Source: Candidatus Hodarchaeota archaeon
GTDB taxonomy: Archaea; Asgardarchaeota; Lokiarchaeia; Sigyniarchaeales; SOKP01
Reading direction: 5' to 3'
DNA length: 64,000 nucleotides
Assembly: GCA_048887165.1 (NCBI GenBank)
Contig: JBHLJZ010000006.1
Span: 8,210-72,209, forward strand
Part shown: positions 6,724 to 42,667 of the stretch, in pieces
Numbering within the stretch: position 1 is the stretch's first letter
Layout: every line of letters begins with the position of its first letter
Position numbers and translations under genes: made by a program
The notes under the pieces: generated by a model
Databases searched by the model: none
What the model saw: the letters and a program-made list of their open reading frames with translations, nothing else
Told to the model about the DNA's origin: nothing

Positions 6724-7647
6724 ATGAATTTCATTGAACAATTAATCCAATCAATAAAGGAAAAACGCAGCGTTGTGTGTATGGGACTCGATCCCCGGAT
6801 AGAAAATGATGGAGAAATTCCAAAATATTTAATCGAAGAATTAGAAGATCCAAATAAAATTATATTAGAATTTAATAAAACTTTAATTGAAAATACTTTT
6901 GATCTAATCCCAATTATAAAACCTCAAATTGCCTTTTATGAAAAATATGATGCATTAACAGCATTAAAAGAAACGATAAAATTTGCGCATAAACATGATT
7001 TATTAGTCATTTTAGATTCTAAAAGAAATGACATCGCTAGCACATCTAAAGCTTATGCAGATGCAACATTTCAATTATATAATGCGGATGCTTGTACTTT
7101 GAATGCTTACTTTGGAATTGATGGGATTAGACCCTATTTAGATTATTATAAGGATAGGGGATTGTTTATTCTTGTTAAAACTTCAAACCCGAGCAGCAAA
7201 GATTTTCAAGATCTTTTTAGTGCGAGTATACGGGAAGAAATTGACTCCAAAATTCAAGTTGAAGTAACTAATATTACATTAGAGAGAAATTACATCCAAA
7301 TGGCTAAATTGGTTTATAATTGGGCAAGAGATTTACCTAAGTTTTCTGGTTTTCATAATCTAGGAGTTGTAGTTGGAGCAACTTATCCTGAGCAATTGAA
7401 AAAAGTTAGAGATCTTGTAAAAGACTCATTTATTTTGATGCCTGGCTATGGAGCACAGGGTGCACAAGCGAAGGATCTAAAATATGCATTTTTAAAAAAT
7501 GGTCTTGGTGGAATTGTTAATTCGTCAAGAGGCATAATTTATGCTTATAATAAGTCAAAAGAATACTCTCCCCATGAATTTGAAGCAGCAGCTAGAAATG
7601 AGATTATTAATATGAACAGAATTATTAATAAAGAGTTTAAACTATAA
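6724..7647 (+). CDS. pyrF: Orotidine 5'-phosphate decarboxylase, type 2
   Basis: 307 aa with VCMGLDPR, KPQIAFYE, ILDSKRNDIAST and PGYGAQG, motifs of the long (type 2) OMP decarboxylases. Confidence 0.85.
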   Translation: MNFIEQLIQSIKEKRSVVCMGLDPRIENDGEIPKYLIEELEDPNKIILEFNKTLIENTFDLIPIIKPQIAFYEKYDALTALKETIKFAHKHDLLVILDSKRNDIASTSKAYADATFQLYNADACTLNAYFGIDGIRPYLDYYKDRGLFILVKTSNPSSKDFQDLFSASIREEIDSKIQVEVTNITLERNYIQMAKLVYNWARDLPKFSGFHNLGVVVGATYPEQLKKVRDLVKDSFILMPGYGAQGAQAKDLKYAFLKNGLGGIVNSSRGIIYAYNKSKEYSPHEFEAAARNEIINMNRIINKEFKL

Positions 7648-7654
7648 AATTTTA

Positions 7655-8080
7655 TTAATAAGTGTAAACAAGGTCGCCCAATACAAAACCCATGGCAAAT
7701 AATGCCGCGGTAATAGGAACTATCAAAAATATCGCAATTATAATCGACTTTTTAATTCCGATTCTATGTAATAAATTCACAACATTTATTTCGACGAAAA
7801 CTGATATTACAATGGTGGGGATAAGCACTTCTAGAGGAGGTGGCCCACGCCAAATAAACATTCCTAACAACATCATTGGTGAACTTATAAAAAAAATTAT
7901 TCCAAATTGAATTCCAAAACTAATTGCAGTCCACTTCATACTTTTTCTTACTTGTGCTTTAGAAATAGCTAAACCGATTTTTAAAATGAAAATACACGCT
8001 ATTAACAATGAAATCATCATAATAATAGGAGTATAATTATCCATTGAACCAATTTGAGGTTGAAATAGAATTAGCAACAT
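7655..8080 (-). CDS. Small integral membrane protein (about 4 TM)
   Basis: 141 aa, strongly hydrophobic with several 20-residue apolar stretches. No motif recognised. Confidence 0.5.
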   Translation of the reverse strand: MLLILFQPQIGSMDNYTPIIMMISLLIACIFILKIGLAISKAQVRKSMKWTAISFGIQFGIIFFISSPMMLLGMFIWRGPPPLEVLIPTIVISVFVEINVVNLLHRIGIKKSIIIAIFLIVPITAALFAMGFVLGDLVYTY

Positions 8081-8278
8081 CTTAAATTCCTAAATGTATC
8101 TTTAATTTTATGTATTTAATTCATAAACTTATAAAAGATACATAAAAGATTTTTGATTTAAAGTTAATTTTTTTAATCAAAGGTTTTAAAATAAAATAAT
8201 ACATTAAACTTCATATTAATTATAAAACCAAAAAGATTGGAGGAAATTTCAAAAAAAGAAAAGAAGGAATGATATGCA

Positions 8279-10255
8279 ATGGTAGAAACTAAGAACATTC
8301 AAGTTAATGAAAGCGATGATATCCGAATTTTCATTGCAATTTGTCAATGAGGCCTAAATGTTGCAGAAATTATTGACACTGTAGCCTTATCAGAGTTTTC
8401 GAAAACATTACCAAATGTTGTCGAGGCTGTAGACTATATATCATTATGTACTGAGCCAGGAGCAGAATTTATTAAAGAAAAAATGATTGAGAGTAATGCT
8501 AATCGATTAGTAGTAGCTTCTTGTACTCCAAAAACTCATGAACCGGTCTTTAAAAGTGTTCTTGAATCAATGGAGTTAGATCCATCGTTTTTAGAATTCG
8601 TTAATATCCGTGAACATTCAAGTTTCGTTCATAGACAAGATAAACAAGGAGCACAGAGTACCGCAGAAGACGCTATTCGATCTGGAGTTGCTAGAGCTGC
8701 ACTTTTAGAGAAAATTTTAATAAAAGAAGTTGATATAACTAAAAAAGCTTTAATTATCGGTGGAGGAGTTGCAGGCTTAACTGCTGCTGTAGATTTGGCT
8801 GATGAAGGGTTTGAGGTGTACTTAGTTGAGAAAAGTCCTACTATCGGTGGAAAAATGGCGATGCTCGATCGTACCTTTCCCACTGATGACTGTAGTATTT
8901 GAATATTAGGACCAGTTATGCTAGAAGCTGCAAGAACCCCAAGATTAAATCTTTACACCTATAGTGAAATTGAAGATATATCTGGATTTGTAGGAAACTT
9001 TAAAGTAAAAATAAGGAAGAAAGCAAGATATGTAAATAATGACTGTAATGGATGCGGTTCGTGCTTTGAAGTTTGTCCTGCTTACGGGTATGATGAATTT
9101 AATGAAGGGTTGAATCCCCGAAAAGCAATATATATCTCTTTTGCTCAAGCTGTACCTTCTATTGCTCAAATTGATATGACAAGATGTATAAAATGTGGAT
9201 TATGTGAAGGTGTTTGCGAAGTCGATGCAATAGATTTTGACCAACAAGATGAAATTGTAGAAATAGAAGTTGGTTCTATTGCTGTTGCAACTGGTTGGGA
9301 TGAATATAAACCAGAAATAGGATATTTAGGTTATAATGTTTATCCTAATGTTATAACTCAAATGAAACTAGAAAGAATACTAGCTCCAAACGGTCCAACA
9401 GTTGGACATCTTGTTAGACCGTCTGATGGAAAGAAGCCAGAAAAAGTCCTATTTATTCAATGTGTAGGTTCAAGAGATTTATCAAGACAAACCTACTGTA
9501 GTGCGGGAGTATGTTGTATGATTTCAATTAAAAATACTAAGCTCATTAAACAGCATTATCCTGAAATCGATATAAGTGTTGCGTATATGGATATAAGAGC
9601 TGCTGGTAAGAATTATGAGGAATATTTTACAGCGTCTCGAAAAGAGGGCATTAAATACATACGGACTAATGTTTCAAAAATTTATGAAGATCCTGAAACC
9701 CATAATCTCAAAGTCATATTACAAAATACATTAAGTAATACTGGATTAAAAGAGTACGAATATGACATGGTTGTGTTATCTGCTGCAATGCTTCCAGCGA
9801 GAGGAGTAGAGAAAATAGGAAAGATATTGAAACTTGAAACTAGTCAAGACGGATTTTTTAAGGAATTTCACGCACGTTTAAATCCAATAGATACAAAAAT
9901 CCCTGGAATTGTACTTGCTGGAGTTGCACAGGGACCTAAATCAATCGCAGAATCAATTGCTCAAGGTAGAGCTGCAGCATCTTCTCTTGCAAGATTAATG
10001 GGAAAAGATAAATATAGAATTTTGCTGATTCGAGCTACAGTTGATACTGAAAAGTGTGCAAAATGTGGATTATGTGAATTAAATTGTCCTTACGATGCTA
10101 TTCAAACTACAGCCGAAGGTGCTGTTGTTGATGAGATCTTATGTAGAGGTTGTGGCTCATGTTTAGCTAATTGCCCTTCAGAAGCTATAACACTACGATA
10201 TTATCGAGAACCTCAATATGAAAAACAAATAGATGCTATATTAGAGGAAATATAG
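8279..10255 (+). CDS. hdrA: Heterodisulfide reductase subunit A (HdrA), a selenoprotein with two in-frame UGA codons
   Basis: ATG at 8279. In-frame TGAs lie at 8348-8350 and 8900-8902. Translation reads MVETKNIQVNESDDIRIFIAICQ[U]GLNVAEIID and RTFPTDDCSI[U]ILGPVMLEAARTP. Both TGAs sit at Cys positions of the conserved HdrA CxCG and DCSxC motifs. It also has the FAD fold GGGVAGLTAAVDLADEGFEVYLVEK and several CxxCxxCxxxC(P) clusters. The ORF track splits it into 8483-8902 and 8918-10255, which are in the same frame. Confidence 0.85.
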
Positions 10256-10268
10256 AGAGGTGGTTTAT

Positions 10269-10721
10269 ATGGCAACAAAAGATAAAGTAAAGATTTTAGC
10301 ATTCATGTGTTGGAAGTGAGGATATGGTGCTGGGGACATGGCGGGAACTATTCGTGCTCAATATCCTGCAACAATTAGACCGATTCGAATAAACTGTACT
10401 GGAAGAGTTACTCCTGGCTTAATGATGCGAGCCATTGGTAAAGGTGCTGATGGTGTAATTGTCGCAGGATGATATGAAGGAGAATGTGATTATGAAACAG
10501 GTAATCTAATAGCGGCTAAGAATGTTGAATTCACACGTGAAATATTAAAAACTGCTGGAGTTTCACCTGAAAGAATACAATTATTTCACTGCAGTGCCGC
10601 AGAAGGACAAAAATTCCAAGAAGAAGTAACTAGAATAACAGAAATTATTGAAAATTTGGGTAGCAATCCTTTAAAAAAATCTTCAGATTCAGAAGATAAG
10701 AAAAAGAAAAAAACCGAATGA
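10269..10721 (+). CDS. mvhD: MvhD/VhuD-type hydrogenase delta subunit (HdrA electron-transfer partner), a selenoprotein with two in-frame UGA codons
   Basis: ATG at 10269, terminal TGA at 10719-10721, in-frame TGAs at 10317-10319 and 10470-10472. Translation is MATKDKVKILAFMCWK[U]GYGAGDMAGTIRAQYPATIRPIRINCTGRVTPGLMMRAIGKGADGVIVAG[U]YEGECDYETGN. This matches the MvhD pattern (CxWCxY..D.AG, R..CTGRV, GADGV.V.GCxxGxCxY) with U at Cys positions. It is absent from the ORF track because of the TGAs. Confidence 0.85.
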
Positions 10722-10744
10722 ATGAATCTTATGAAAAAAAATTA

Positions 10745-10790
10745 GTCGTAAGATGACAAACCATAAAGCAATGGTCTCGGAAAAATGTTT
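10745..10790 (+). promoter_or_regulatory. Candidate SECIS-like hairpin in the 3' UTR of hdrA-mvhD
   Basis: This is the only relatively G/C-containing hairpin in the 3' flank. The parts are AUGA (10753-10756), stem ACCAU (10760-10764) / AUGGU (10771-10775), an A-rich loop AAAGCA (10765-10770), and a 3' GA (10780-10781). That GA could form tandem sheared G.A pairs with G10755/A10756. Folded by eye only, and helix I is weak. Confidence 0.3.
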
Positions 10791-10944
10791 TAAAACTTAT
10801 TTTTTGATTTTCAGATTATAATCCTATTAATAATATAATAAAAAATTGGTAAATCTTTTTAAACTCGTGATTCTAGTTAAATCCTAATTTTAATTTCATA
10901 GAAATTAAAAGACTATTGAAAATTAAATAAAAAAGTGAAAAAAG

Positions 10945-11595
10945 ATGGGTGAAGTTACAAGTACAACAGAAAAGATTACAGCACCAAAATTACTTGCTTT
11001 CATTGGTATGCTCTATACTCTTGCCTTAGGAATTACTTATTTCTATGCTGCTGCAAATCCCCTGAACATTCTTTGGGGAATAATTTGCTTAGTTATTGCT
11101 TTCTTAATCTTTGTAGCATTAGAACTGGTCGATTTTGGACCAGTTAAAATTCCTTATCAATGGTGGCTAATACTTATCTTTGGTGTAGTTTTATTGTTAT
11201 TTGCACTCTTTTTAGGAGGTAGTTATTTTCCTGCAATTCTCCTATTATTAGCAGCCTTAATTGAAGTAATAATGGAGAAGAAACCATATAAGGCTTCAAA
11301 AATGGTTCTTTTAGTCGGTATCGGTTTTTCAATCTATGAATGTTTCGATTTATTCATATCTGGAGGAGCTATTCCTATTTTAAATGGAGTTTTCGGTTTG
11401 ATTTTACTTATTATTTTACTTCTGATCTTATTTGATGTCGTAGATTTCAAAGTCATAGATTATTCCTGGTGGTTAGTTCTACTAATAGGATTTGTCATCT
11501 TTATTTGGGTATCTCCTTTAGCAACAGGTGTTCTTACTGGATTTGGAGGAACTCTTATATTAATAGCATTTGTACTTATAATGTTGGCATTATAA
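10945..11595 (+). CDS. Integral membrane protein with an internal duplication
   Basis: 216 aa, almost entirely hydrophobic. The two halves share ELVDFGPVKIPYQWWLILIFGVV and LFDVVDFKVIDYSWWLVLLIGFV. Confidence 0.55.
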   Translation: MGEVTSTTEKITAPKLLAFIGMLYTLALGITYFYAAANPLNILWGIICLVIAFLIFVALELVDFGPVKIPYQWWLILIFGVVLLLFALFLGGSYFPAILLLLAALIEVIMEKKPYKASKMVLLVGIGFSIYECFDLFISGGAIPILNGVFGLILLIILLLILFDVVDFKVIDYSWWLVLLIGFVIFIWVSPLATGVLTGFGGTLILIAFVLIMLAL

Positions 11596-11730: not shown

Positions 11731-13038
11731 ATGGGTAAAAATTTACTAGTCAAAGCTGAAAATCAATTTCTAAAAGCTGAAAAATTATTTAAAGCCAGAC
11801 AATTTAAGAAAGCAGGGAAACTTTTCCATAATTCGGGGCAAGGTTTTCTAGAAATTCACAAGTATGAATCAGCTAGAGATAGCTTCATTAATTCTGCTAA
11901 ATCTTTTTTAGAATCTGAGAAATTTGATACTGTTCTTAAACTATATAGGTTAGCCGCTAGAGCATCCTTGCATAATGAAAGGTATCTAGAAGCTAATGAA
12001 TTGTATCGTAATGCTCTTAATTATATCTCAAATTTAAAAAGTGCTAACGATCAAAATGCTCAATATTTATTATTTTCAATATTATCATACCTATGCCTAT
12101 TTATAAAGGCTCAACAAGAAGAAGCTTTGGATTTTTTAAAAAGGATTCAAAAAAAAGTTGATAATCAATATTTTAAGGAAAGTCCTTTAATAAAAATTGC
12201 AACGAATTTAACTATTGCACTAAGAGACAAAAATAAAAGTTCAATTGAGAGAGTAAAGGATAATATAAATGATTATAAATTCAATAATGTTGAAACAGAC
12301 CTTTTAAGGAAAGCTCTGATGATAGCAGAATGTCAAACTTCTCCATTAACGTCATTTGAATTAGACAAAAAGCAATATACTACGAATGATAAGATTAAAC
12401 TCAAATTGGATGTTAAAATGAAACCATTACAAACTATTTTTGAAGATGGATTTTATAACTATAAAACTGAAAATATTGAAATAAATAAAGTCAGCATTCA
12501 TCTATCAGATAATCTTACTGTAAGCAATAAACCTAATTTTCCGCTCAAACTAGAATTAACTAATGATTTTGAAATAAATTATGTAATTAAGCCTCACTTT
12601 CAGCTTGATAAACCCTATATCGGTCCTATGGATCTAATTTTTGAATTAAATGATAATTTGTTATTTATATATACAACAAATATTATTGAACCTAATATTC
12701 TCTCTCCTCCTGCAAGTCTATCTGTCTCAATTAAAAATCTAAGACCTCCGTTAATTGGACAAACATTTCCTTTAGAGATCCTCGTTGAAAATAAAAGCGA
12801 AGGTGAAGCATTAGATGTAAATATTGATGTTGAATTTCCTGATGAATTGAAAATAATGAGAGGAACTACAAATAAACAAATATATTCTCTTAGGTCTAAT
12901 GAAGATTTGAAATGGGAAACAAATTTAAAACCCACAGAAGCAGGAGATTATGTAATAAAATTTAATATTAAATTTACCGATCCTGATCAGAATATGATTG
13001 AAGAAGTTAAAGAGTTTCCATTTTCCATAAAACTCTAG
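11731..13038 (+). CDS. Cytoplasmic protein with an N-terminal TPR-like helical repeat region and C-terminal beta-sandwich (CARDB/DUF11-like) domains
   Basis: 435 aa with no signal peptide. The first ~200 aa are helical hairpin repeats (A..F..AAK.F type). The C-terminus, PLIGQTFPLEILVENKSEGEALDVNIDVEFPDELKI...TEAGDYVIKFNIKF, resembles CARDB-type Ig-like domains. Confidence 0.45.
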   Translation: MGKNLLVKAENQFLKAEKLFKARQFKKAGKLFHNSGQGFLEIHKYESARDSFINSAKSFLESEKFDTVLKLYRLAARASLHNERYLEANELYRNALNYISNLKSANDQNAQYLLFSILSYLCLFIKAQQEEALDFLKRIQKKVDNQYFKESPLIKIATNLTIALRDKNKSSIERVKDNINDYKFNNVETDLLRKALMIAECQTSPLTSFELDKKQYTTNDKIKLKLDVKMKPLQTIFEDGFYNYKTENIEINKVSIHLSDNLTVSNKPNFPLKLELTNDFEINYVIKPHFQLDKPYIGPMDLIFELNDNLLFIYTTNIIEPNILSPPASLSVSIKNLRPPLIGQTFPLEILVENKSEGEALDVNIDVEFPDELKIMRGTTNKQIYSLRSNEDLKWETNLKPTEAGDYVIKFNIKFTDPDQNMIEEVKEFPFSIKL

Positions 13039-42563: not shown

Positions 42564-42667
42564 GCAGATGTAGCCTAGATGGTAAGACGCCGGCCTCGAG
42601 TGTTCTTAAATGTACCTAGAGAGCCGGTGCGTGTAAGCGCGCGGGGGTTCGAGTCCCTCCATCTGCG
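42564..42667 (+). tRNA. tRNA-Ser (anticodon CGA) with a 21-nt intron at the canonical 37/38 position
   Basis: Cloverleaf drawn by hand. Acceptor stem GCAGATG / CATCTGC (42564-70 / 42660-66), discriminator G42667. D-loop GG at 42581-82. Anticodon stem CCGGC / GCCGG (42590-94 / 42623-27). The loop CTCGAG|A carries anticodon CGA at 42597-99, with the insertion at 42601-42621. There is a ~15-nt variable arm (class II) and the T-arm GGGGG-TTCGAGT-CCCTC. No CCA is encoded. The region stands out as a G+C-rich island. Confidence 0.85.

Follow-up and report, generated by a model that had tools for sequence, protein, structure and literature searches.

The closest described relative of the element considered here is the lokiSECIS of HdrA-VhuD gene pairs (Mariotti et al., 2016, Mol Biol Evol 33:2441; PMC4989117). 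As defined in that paper, a lokiSECIS consists of an AUGA, a 9-bp stem, an 11-nt loop (the first five bases mostly A, with a final G after an A) and a GA. It lies near the end of the coding sequence and, in HdrA-VhuD pairs, is found solely downstream of VhuD; existing SECIS tools miss such elements (PMC4989117). Huang et al. termed the lokiSECIS type I “eSECIS-like” and extended it to more than 400 Asgard genomes (Huang et al., 2024; PMC11227280). Lower stems were examined in that study as well, and the available text of the paper reports family-specific pairs only for frhA and selD (PMC11227280). A single SECIS common to hdrA and vhuD over about 2 kb is already known from this work (2016, extended 2024), and the shared HdrA-VhuD SECIS is the standard published example of the archaeal-to-eukaryotic transition in selenocysteine (Sec) decoding. 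In euryarchaea (Methanococcales and Methanopyrus) the VhuD SECIS likewise lies downstream of vhuD, a gene that there too has two Sec codons; AUGA and GAC/AAC surround its main stem, and a short extra stem lies below (PMC4989117).

The operon described here lies in a 64-kb stretch of archaeal DNA, the whole of which was analysed (the window; 64,000 nt, G+C about 30%). It provides one more clean example of a shared SECIS rather than a new principle, and the hairpin to which the SECIS had been assigned in an initial annotation of this DNA is corrected. The operon has the following parts:

8279 to 10255, + strand: hdrA (heterodisulfide reductase subunit A), stop UAG at 10253-55, from translation
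8348 to 8350: in-frame UGA, codon 24 of hdrA, predicted Sec
8900 to 8902: in-frame UGA, codon 208 of hdrA, predicted Sec
10256 to 10268, + strand: hdrA-mvhD intercistronic gap, 13 nt, holding a Shine-Dalgarno-like GAGGUGG at 10257-63
10269 to 10721, + strand: mvhD/vhuD (FlpD family), stop UGA at 10719-21, from translation
10317 to 10319: in-frame UGA, codon 17 of mvhD, predicted Sec
10470 to 10472: in-frame UGA, codon 68 of mvhD, predicted Sec

The 13-nt gap and the four in-frame UGAs, both pointed out in the initial annotation, are present in sequence and translation. Pfam finds Fer4 and FAD/NAD-binding domains in HdrA and identifies MvhD by PF02662 (FlpD, E = 1.3e-42); the nearest relatives of the C-terminal half of MvhD, at no more than 93% identity, are Promethearchaeota (Lokiarchaeota) MAGs. 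Orthologs were assembled from 47 loci of species-representative genomes (all Asgard, and spanning most or all of hdrA where the contig permits) and 80 metagenome loci, 127 in total. Within this set of UGA-containing loci the Sec positions are always TGA: 40/40 and 42/42 for hdrA codons 24 and 208, and 122/122 and 127/127 for the two positions in mvhD. The Sec codons occupy Cys-homologous positions, and the remaining Cys are all kept across the orthologous loci. From this pattern all four in-frame UGAs in hdrA and mvhD appear to be genuine Sec codons. The stop codon of hdrA is TAG in 66 loci, TAA in 51 and TGA in none (117 loci), as would be expected if the downstream SECIS acts on hdrA, and the gap between the genes is 10–20 nt in 115 orthologous loci. 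Together, Sec-codon constancy, hdrA stop usage and the short gap are the same grounds on which a downstream SECIS was earlier argued to act on hdrA (PMC4989117). One further position varies: HdrA codon 57 is TGT in the window (8447-8449), TGA in 12 orthologous loci (L008, L020, L021, L026, L029, L036, L037, L039, L042, L043, L045, L047) and TGT or TGC in 29, a distribution that reads as a live Sec/Cys polymorphism inside the family.

The initial annotation held that a single eukaryote-like SECIS lies downstream of mvhD. Such an element was indeed found there, with no second one in hdrA, the gap or the 5′ region. Its position is a different one: judging by sequence and conservation, the true SECIS core is 10722-10756, directly 3′ of the mvhD stop, and the core sits within a larger conserved fold whose helices are called P1, P2 and P3 in what follows:

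10714 to 10717, + strand: P1 5′ strand, CCGA (closing helix), within the last mvhD codons here; from orthologs
10722 to 10725, + strand: AUGA, 5′ half of a predicted G.A/A.G quartet; invariant in MAFFT alignment A1
10726 to 10754, + strand: P2, the predicted SECIS helix; 9-bp stem of AUCUUAUGA (10726-34) with UCGUAAGAU (10746-54), 9/9 paired
10735 to 10745, + strand: P2 apical loop, 11 nt, AAAAAAAUUAG
10755 to 10757, + strand: 3′ GA of the core (10755-56) and a conserved C; from ortholog comparison
10760 to 10775, + strand: P3, the hairpin of the initial annotation; ACCAU 10760-64, loop AAAGCA 10765-70, AUGGU 10771-75
10777 to 10780, + strand: P1 3′ strand, UCGG, pairing with CCGA 10714-17 in the conserved fold
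10788 to 10812, + strand: T-rich tract (UUUU, UUUUUU, UUUU), from the letters only

Several observations bear on the core. It is the MFE fold of its own sequence (−7.3 kcal/mol, z = −3.19), and the strict lokiSECIS pattern matches at this site and nowhere else on either strand of the 64 kb, with 0.01 matches expected from shuffles. All of the sequence-level features by which lokiSECIS was defined are present: AUGA, stem and loop lengths, loop composition, GA, location, and compensatory changes in the stem. An equivalent element is found at or just 3′ of the mvhD stop in 127/127 loci (47 genome, 80 metagenome). Among unique orthologs, the P2 loop is 11 nt in 94/104, it ends in AG in 98/101, and at least four of its first five bases are A in 93/101; the 3′ GA is kept in 103/104 unique sequences and the next base is C in 102/104. 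The stop UGA of mvhD adjoins the AUGA without spacing in the window and in two orthologous loci (L001, L021), and in 14/47 genome loci the UGA within the AUGA itself serves as the stop (L002, L003, L004, L006, L007, L008, L011, L012, L013, L020, L022, L033, L034, L041). Set beside the published lokiSECIS pairs, the window has the same core throughout, none near hdrA, several Sec-UGAs in both genes, the same very short gap after hdrA, an hdrA stop that is UAG or UAA, and a tolerated UGA stop of vhuD beside the SECIS. Documented here in addition are a closing helix (P1) and a further hairpin (P3), which with P2 form a three-way junction.

Covariation supports P2. In the MAFFT alignment all nine P2 pairs change on both sides; paired cells make up 92%, compared with 34–50% in slid controls, and the observed covariation score is reached by 0/500 shuffles. 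Alignments fitted to a covariance model (CM), which lean towards the modelled structure, agree with the MAFFT result on P2. The covariance model R1, built from 48 sequences of mvhD elements only, has one match in the window, 10708-10786, at 91 bits. In the orthologous loci it gives one good match per locus, each directly after a UGA-containing gene, so that the element is associated exclusively with selenoprotein genes.

The 79-nt element at 10708-10786 folds as a three-way junction (MFE −14.4 kcal/mol, z = −3.42, 0/200 shuffles equal), and this junction is the RNAfold MFE structure for most orthologs, the window included. Across orthologs the conserved order is CCGAA, a 3-4-nt spacer, AUGA, P2, GA, C, two or three bases, a hairpin of the form ACC..-loop-..GGU, and UUCGG. 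For P1, every one of the 101 unique orthologs has the CCG/CGG pairs; a fourth pair (A-U) is seen in 99/101 and a fifth in 76/101. Its 5′ strand, CCGAA, is kept whether it is coding or, after an earlier stop, part of the 3′ UTR (this varies by locus), which points to a constraint at the RNA level. The 4-bp P1 of the window is not significant by itself (1105/2000 shuffles reach it), single-sequence tests being weak in an AT-rich context. Since P1 is almost invariant within the mvhD family, its support comes from comparisons across families and with an outlier, locus L046, in which P1 is wholly replaced by AUGUGU/ACACAU. Both the MAFFT and the CM-fitted alignments shift P1 by one column in the CCGAAUAGA subgroup, so that the 74–77% of paired cells obtained there understates P1; an anchor-based count was used instead.

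P3 is the hairpin on which the initial annotation had centred its SECIS. The hairpin, 10760-64 with 10771-75, is real and is kept in 99/101 unique orthologs. It does not form the SECIS core, however, but is an accessory side arm of the same composite element. Its ACC...GGU base is nearly invariant and its loop retains a GC dinucleotide. The inner pairs compensate to some extent (A-U/U-A to U-A/U-G, C-G or, in L055, G-C, with the strands swapped in L046). The AUGA/GA quartet proposed to flank this hairpin is not conserved. The AUGA at 10753-56 consists of the last two bases of the P2 3′ strand and the true 3′ GA (10755-56), and other orthologs have AAGA, AGGA, GGGA and others at this place. The lower helix to which U10777, C10778 and G10779 had been assigned does not hold either: with G10780, the G of the supposed 3′ GA, these bases form the UCGG of the P1 3′ strand, the partner of CCGA 10714-17. 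Taken alone, the 46-nt stretch initially proposed forms only the 5-bp hairpin (RNAfold; z = −1.26, with 23/200 shuffles folding equally well), and a better-supported SECIS, the core at 10722-10756, begins 31 nt upstream.

A second family of genes carries the same arrangement. Prx-like (PrxL) loci of two subfamilies were retrieved by protein searches with Prx-like sequences from the supplement of PMC11227280. In subfamily 2 (FFRGNWUSHCKKH-type; L136-L145) canonical lokiSECIS elements start 3–17 nt around the stop. Their layout is that of mvhD: an AUGA, a 9-bp stem, an 11-12-nt loop ending in GAG, a GAC and a ACCUUGCAAAGGU-like P3. The closing helix differs, being AAUCCC(A)/(U)GGGAUU, and the spacer ends in AGA. 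R1 recovers all seven distinct subfamily 2 elements at full length, with 27–40 bits and E of about 1e-7 to 1e-4. When mvhD and PrxL sequences are combined (72 sequences, in an alignment that is CM-fitted and so leans towards the model), changes on both sides are found in 15/19 pairs, 88% of cells are paired versus 34–51% in slid controls, and 0/500 shuffles reach the observed value on any of five measures. The junction is common to mvhD and PrxL subfamily 2, and so looks general to this class of SECIS rather than an adaptation to two cistrons. The subfamily 2 gene is regularly preceded by a gene for an Arf/Ras-family small GTPase, and in several loci a Sec23-like gene follows it.

PrxL subfamily 1 (INUPYCRWH-type; L128, L130, L133, L134) has no element of the AUGA-9bp-11nt-9bp-GA form near the stop. 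About 10–90 nt after the stop (for example at about 1293-1365 in L130) there is a different conserved three-way junction: P1 is UUUGG/CCAAA, the P3 loop is an almost invariant UAGCCAC (UAGCCAU in L134), and P2, of 10–11 bp with an A-rich loop of 12–16 nt, differs in sequence among the four loci yet is fully paired. Possibly this AUGA-less junction represents a second class of SECIS in these organisms.

Taken together, these observations favour the reading that 10714-10780 is the orthologue of the published lokiSECIS of HdrA-VhuD pairs, with its core embedded in a P1/P2/P3 junction (a probability of roughly 0.8). Of the alternatives, the one that survives best is that the 3′ element acts on mvhD only and that hdrA has a recoding signal of its own, whether in its coding sequence, in the 5′ leader or, as in bacteria, beside each UGA. 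Action over 2.4 kb and across a stop/restart boundary has no experimental precedent in any system, and elements within coding sequence can escape detection. Even so, this alternative is improbable. Apart from the 3′ element, neither R1 nor the strict pattern matches anything in the operon, nor in those orthologous loci that extend over hdrA. The 70 nt that follow each of the four UGAs are no more stable than shuffled sequence (z = 0.16 to 0.99), and the stable hairpin shortly 3′ of the Sec-UGA that marks a bacterial-type SECIS is absent at all four. The intercistronic region, too, folds no better than shuffles and has no SECIS-like element. A loose pattern scan for the euryarchaeal GAA_A element found none in 10701-10944 and one site in the whole operon, which is at chance level. 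The available text of Mariotti et al. describes an RNAz scan of HdrA alignments that found nothing (PMC4989117), and the hdrA stop, which is not UGA in 117/117 loci, is also against a signal confined to mvhD. With no second element found, the single 3′ element would have to act on UGAs as far as 2.37 kb upstream, beyond a cistron boundary.

The Rfam searches, for their part, speak against the favoured reading. No SECIS family reaches its gathering threshold anywhere in the window or E <= 10 in 8000-11100, in line with the published remark that SECIS tools miss lokiSECIS (PMC4989117). The only weak Rfam matches in 8000-11100 are to snoRNA and miRNA models, at chance level and inside hdrA. One of them, a SNORD43-like C/D-box match at 9085-9120 (+), scores 20.6 bits (E = 0.48), far short of the gathering score; it has AUGAUGA and UGA boxes, and chance is its likeliest explanation.

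It is still less probable that the 3′ junction is a terminator or an mRNA-stability or regulatory element without any role in Sec insertion. The junction does lie at the 3′ end of the operon with T-runs next to it (the T-rich tract at 10788-10812, just after the element, is a possible archaeal oligo-T terminator), and P1 and P3 have no described part in SECIS function. Against this, the junction has precisely the AUGA/GA core, together with an A-rich loop and the fixed geometry of SECIS-type elements, and the same architecture recurs after unrelated PrxL selenoprotein genes. No other good match turned up across the 64 kb or, in the fetched loci, in the DNA on either side of the selenoprotein genes; the flanks of the hdrA-mvhD loci likewise hold no further lokiSECIS copies. 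Scarcely credible, finally, is the SECIS of the initial annotation, a hairpin at 10753-10781 with a kink-turn from AUGA 10753-56 and GA 10780-81 around ACCAU/AUGGU: every named base, including the AAAGCA loop at 10765-70, is in place and the 5-bp hairpin is conserved, but that AUGA occurs in 32/101 and that GA in 52/101 unique orthologs, a 5-bp helix with a 6-nt loop departs from lokiSECIS, in which the stem is fixed at 9 bp and the loop at 11 nt, the fold is no better than that of shuffled sequence, and the P2 3′ strand, the true GA, P3 and P1 between them already take up all the bases of this hairpin.

If 10714-10780 is the lokiSECIS orthologue, its mode of action might be as follows. hdrA and mvhD would be translated from one bicistronic mRNA. 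As in eukaryotic SECIS, the AUGA/GA pair is predicted to form a kink-turn with tandem sheared G.A pairs, and the folded 3′ element would recruit archaeal SelB and Sec-tRNASec, directly or through an adaptor. The UGAs 252, 405, 1822 and 2374 nt upstream would thereby be read as selenocysteine, two of them across the cistron boundary. The mvhD stop UGA, adjoining the core, would be too close for recoding; the hdrA stop is never UGA. A ribosome terminating at the mvhD stop would be expected to melt both P1 and the core, in keeping with the published argument for a minimal distance.

The proposed element resembles eukaryotic SECIS of form 1 (RF00031, SECIS_1) in its site in the 3′ UTR, its AUGA...GA quartet, the unpaired A's of its loop and its inferred action at a distance, although RF00031 itself gives no Rfam match even at E <= 10. 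There are also differences. The upper helix of the window element is 9 bp, described in the literature as shorter than that of eukaryotic SECIS (PMC4989117); a hairpin is inserted between the 3′ GA and the lower helix, in place of a simple internal loop; and the element would serve two cistrons. As to a binding partner, the available text of Mariotti et al. reports no SBP2 homologue in Lokiarchaeota (PMC4989117). With the euryarchaeal VhuD SECIS the window family shares the GAC (the conserved C after GA described above), and P1 may correspond to the extra stem of that element; the 3′ UTR of the window has neither the GAA_A bulge nor the G-C-rich upper stem of euryarchaeal SECIS. In methanogens hdrA has its own SECIS, unlike in the operon of the window.

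The three-way junction invites a further, structural comparison. A kink-turn elaborated into a three-way junction is reportedly what Lilley and co-workers call a k-junction. The window element would be similar in topology only: one of its helices has predicted tandem G.A pairs at its base, and a third helix lies between the 3′ GA and the closing helix. As modelled, the sequence is compatible with a kink-turn or k-junction, since AUGA and GA flank P2 and P3 is inserted before P1. Whether the P1/P3 extension is new is uncertain: the main texts of the two earlier papers, in the parts available, make no mention of it (PMC4989117; PMC11227280).

The functional Lokiarchaeal SECIS may even be a k-junction-like three-way junction of about 65 nt (a closing helix P1 specific to each family, the helix P2 flanked by AUGA and GA, and a conserved ACC...GGU hairpin P3 whose loop contains GC) rather than a 35-nt hairpin, a tentative idea to which we give somewhat less than even odds. 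P1 and P3 could act as a docking platform for an Asgard SECIS-binding factor or for SelB, and the eukaryotic helix I and internal loop may also be descended from the state that they represent. If P1 and P3 are needed for function, minimal constructs and searches for binding proteins should use 10708-10786 and not the 35-nt hairpin. The corrected coordinates matter in any case, as a reporter built on the hairpin of the initial annotation would halve the true core.

Other features of the window may be noted briefly. An OMP-decarboxylase-family gene lies upstream of the operon at 6724-7647, and the 216-aa ORF just downstream of the operon looks like a small multi-pass membrane protein. Pfam has no match for the operon-flanking ORFs 10945-11595 (+), 11731-13038 (+) and 7655-8080 (-). 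Long TGA-containing frames elsewhere in the window, considered as candidates for other selenoprotein genes, were rejected as low-complexity antisense or off-frame artefacts. A search of the window for tRNA-Sec with ARAGORN found none (and no tRNA at all). Rfam places a tRNA at 42564-42667 (+; 104 nt, 43.6 bits) that is not obviously a tRNA-Sec. About 25 nt, probably an intron, are inserted in its anticodon region, and its variable arm has 12 nt; these features together suggest an intron-containing class II tRNA of the Leu or Ser type.
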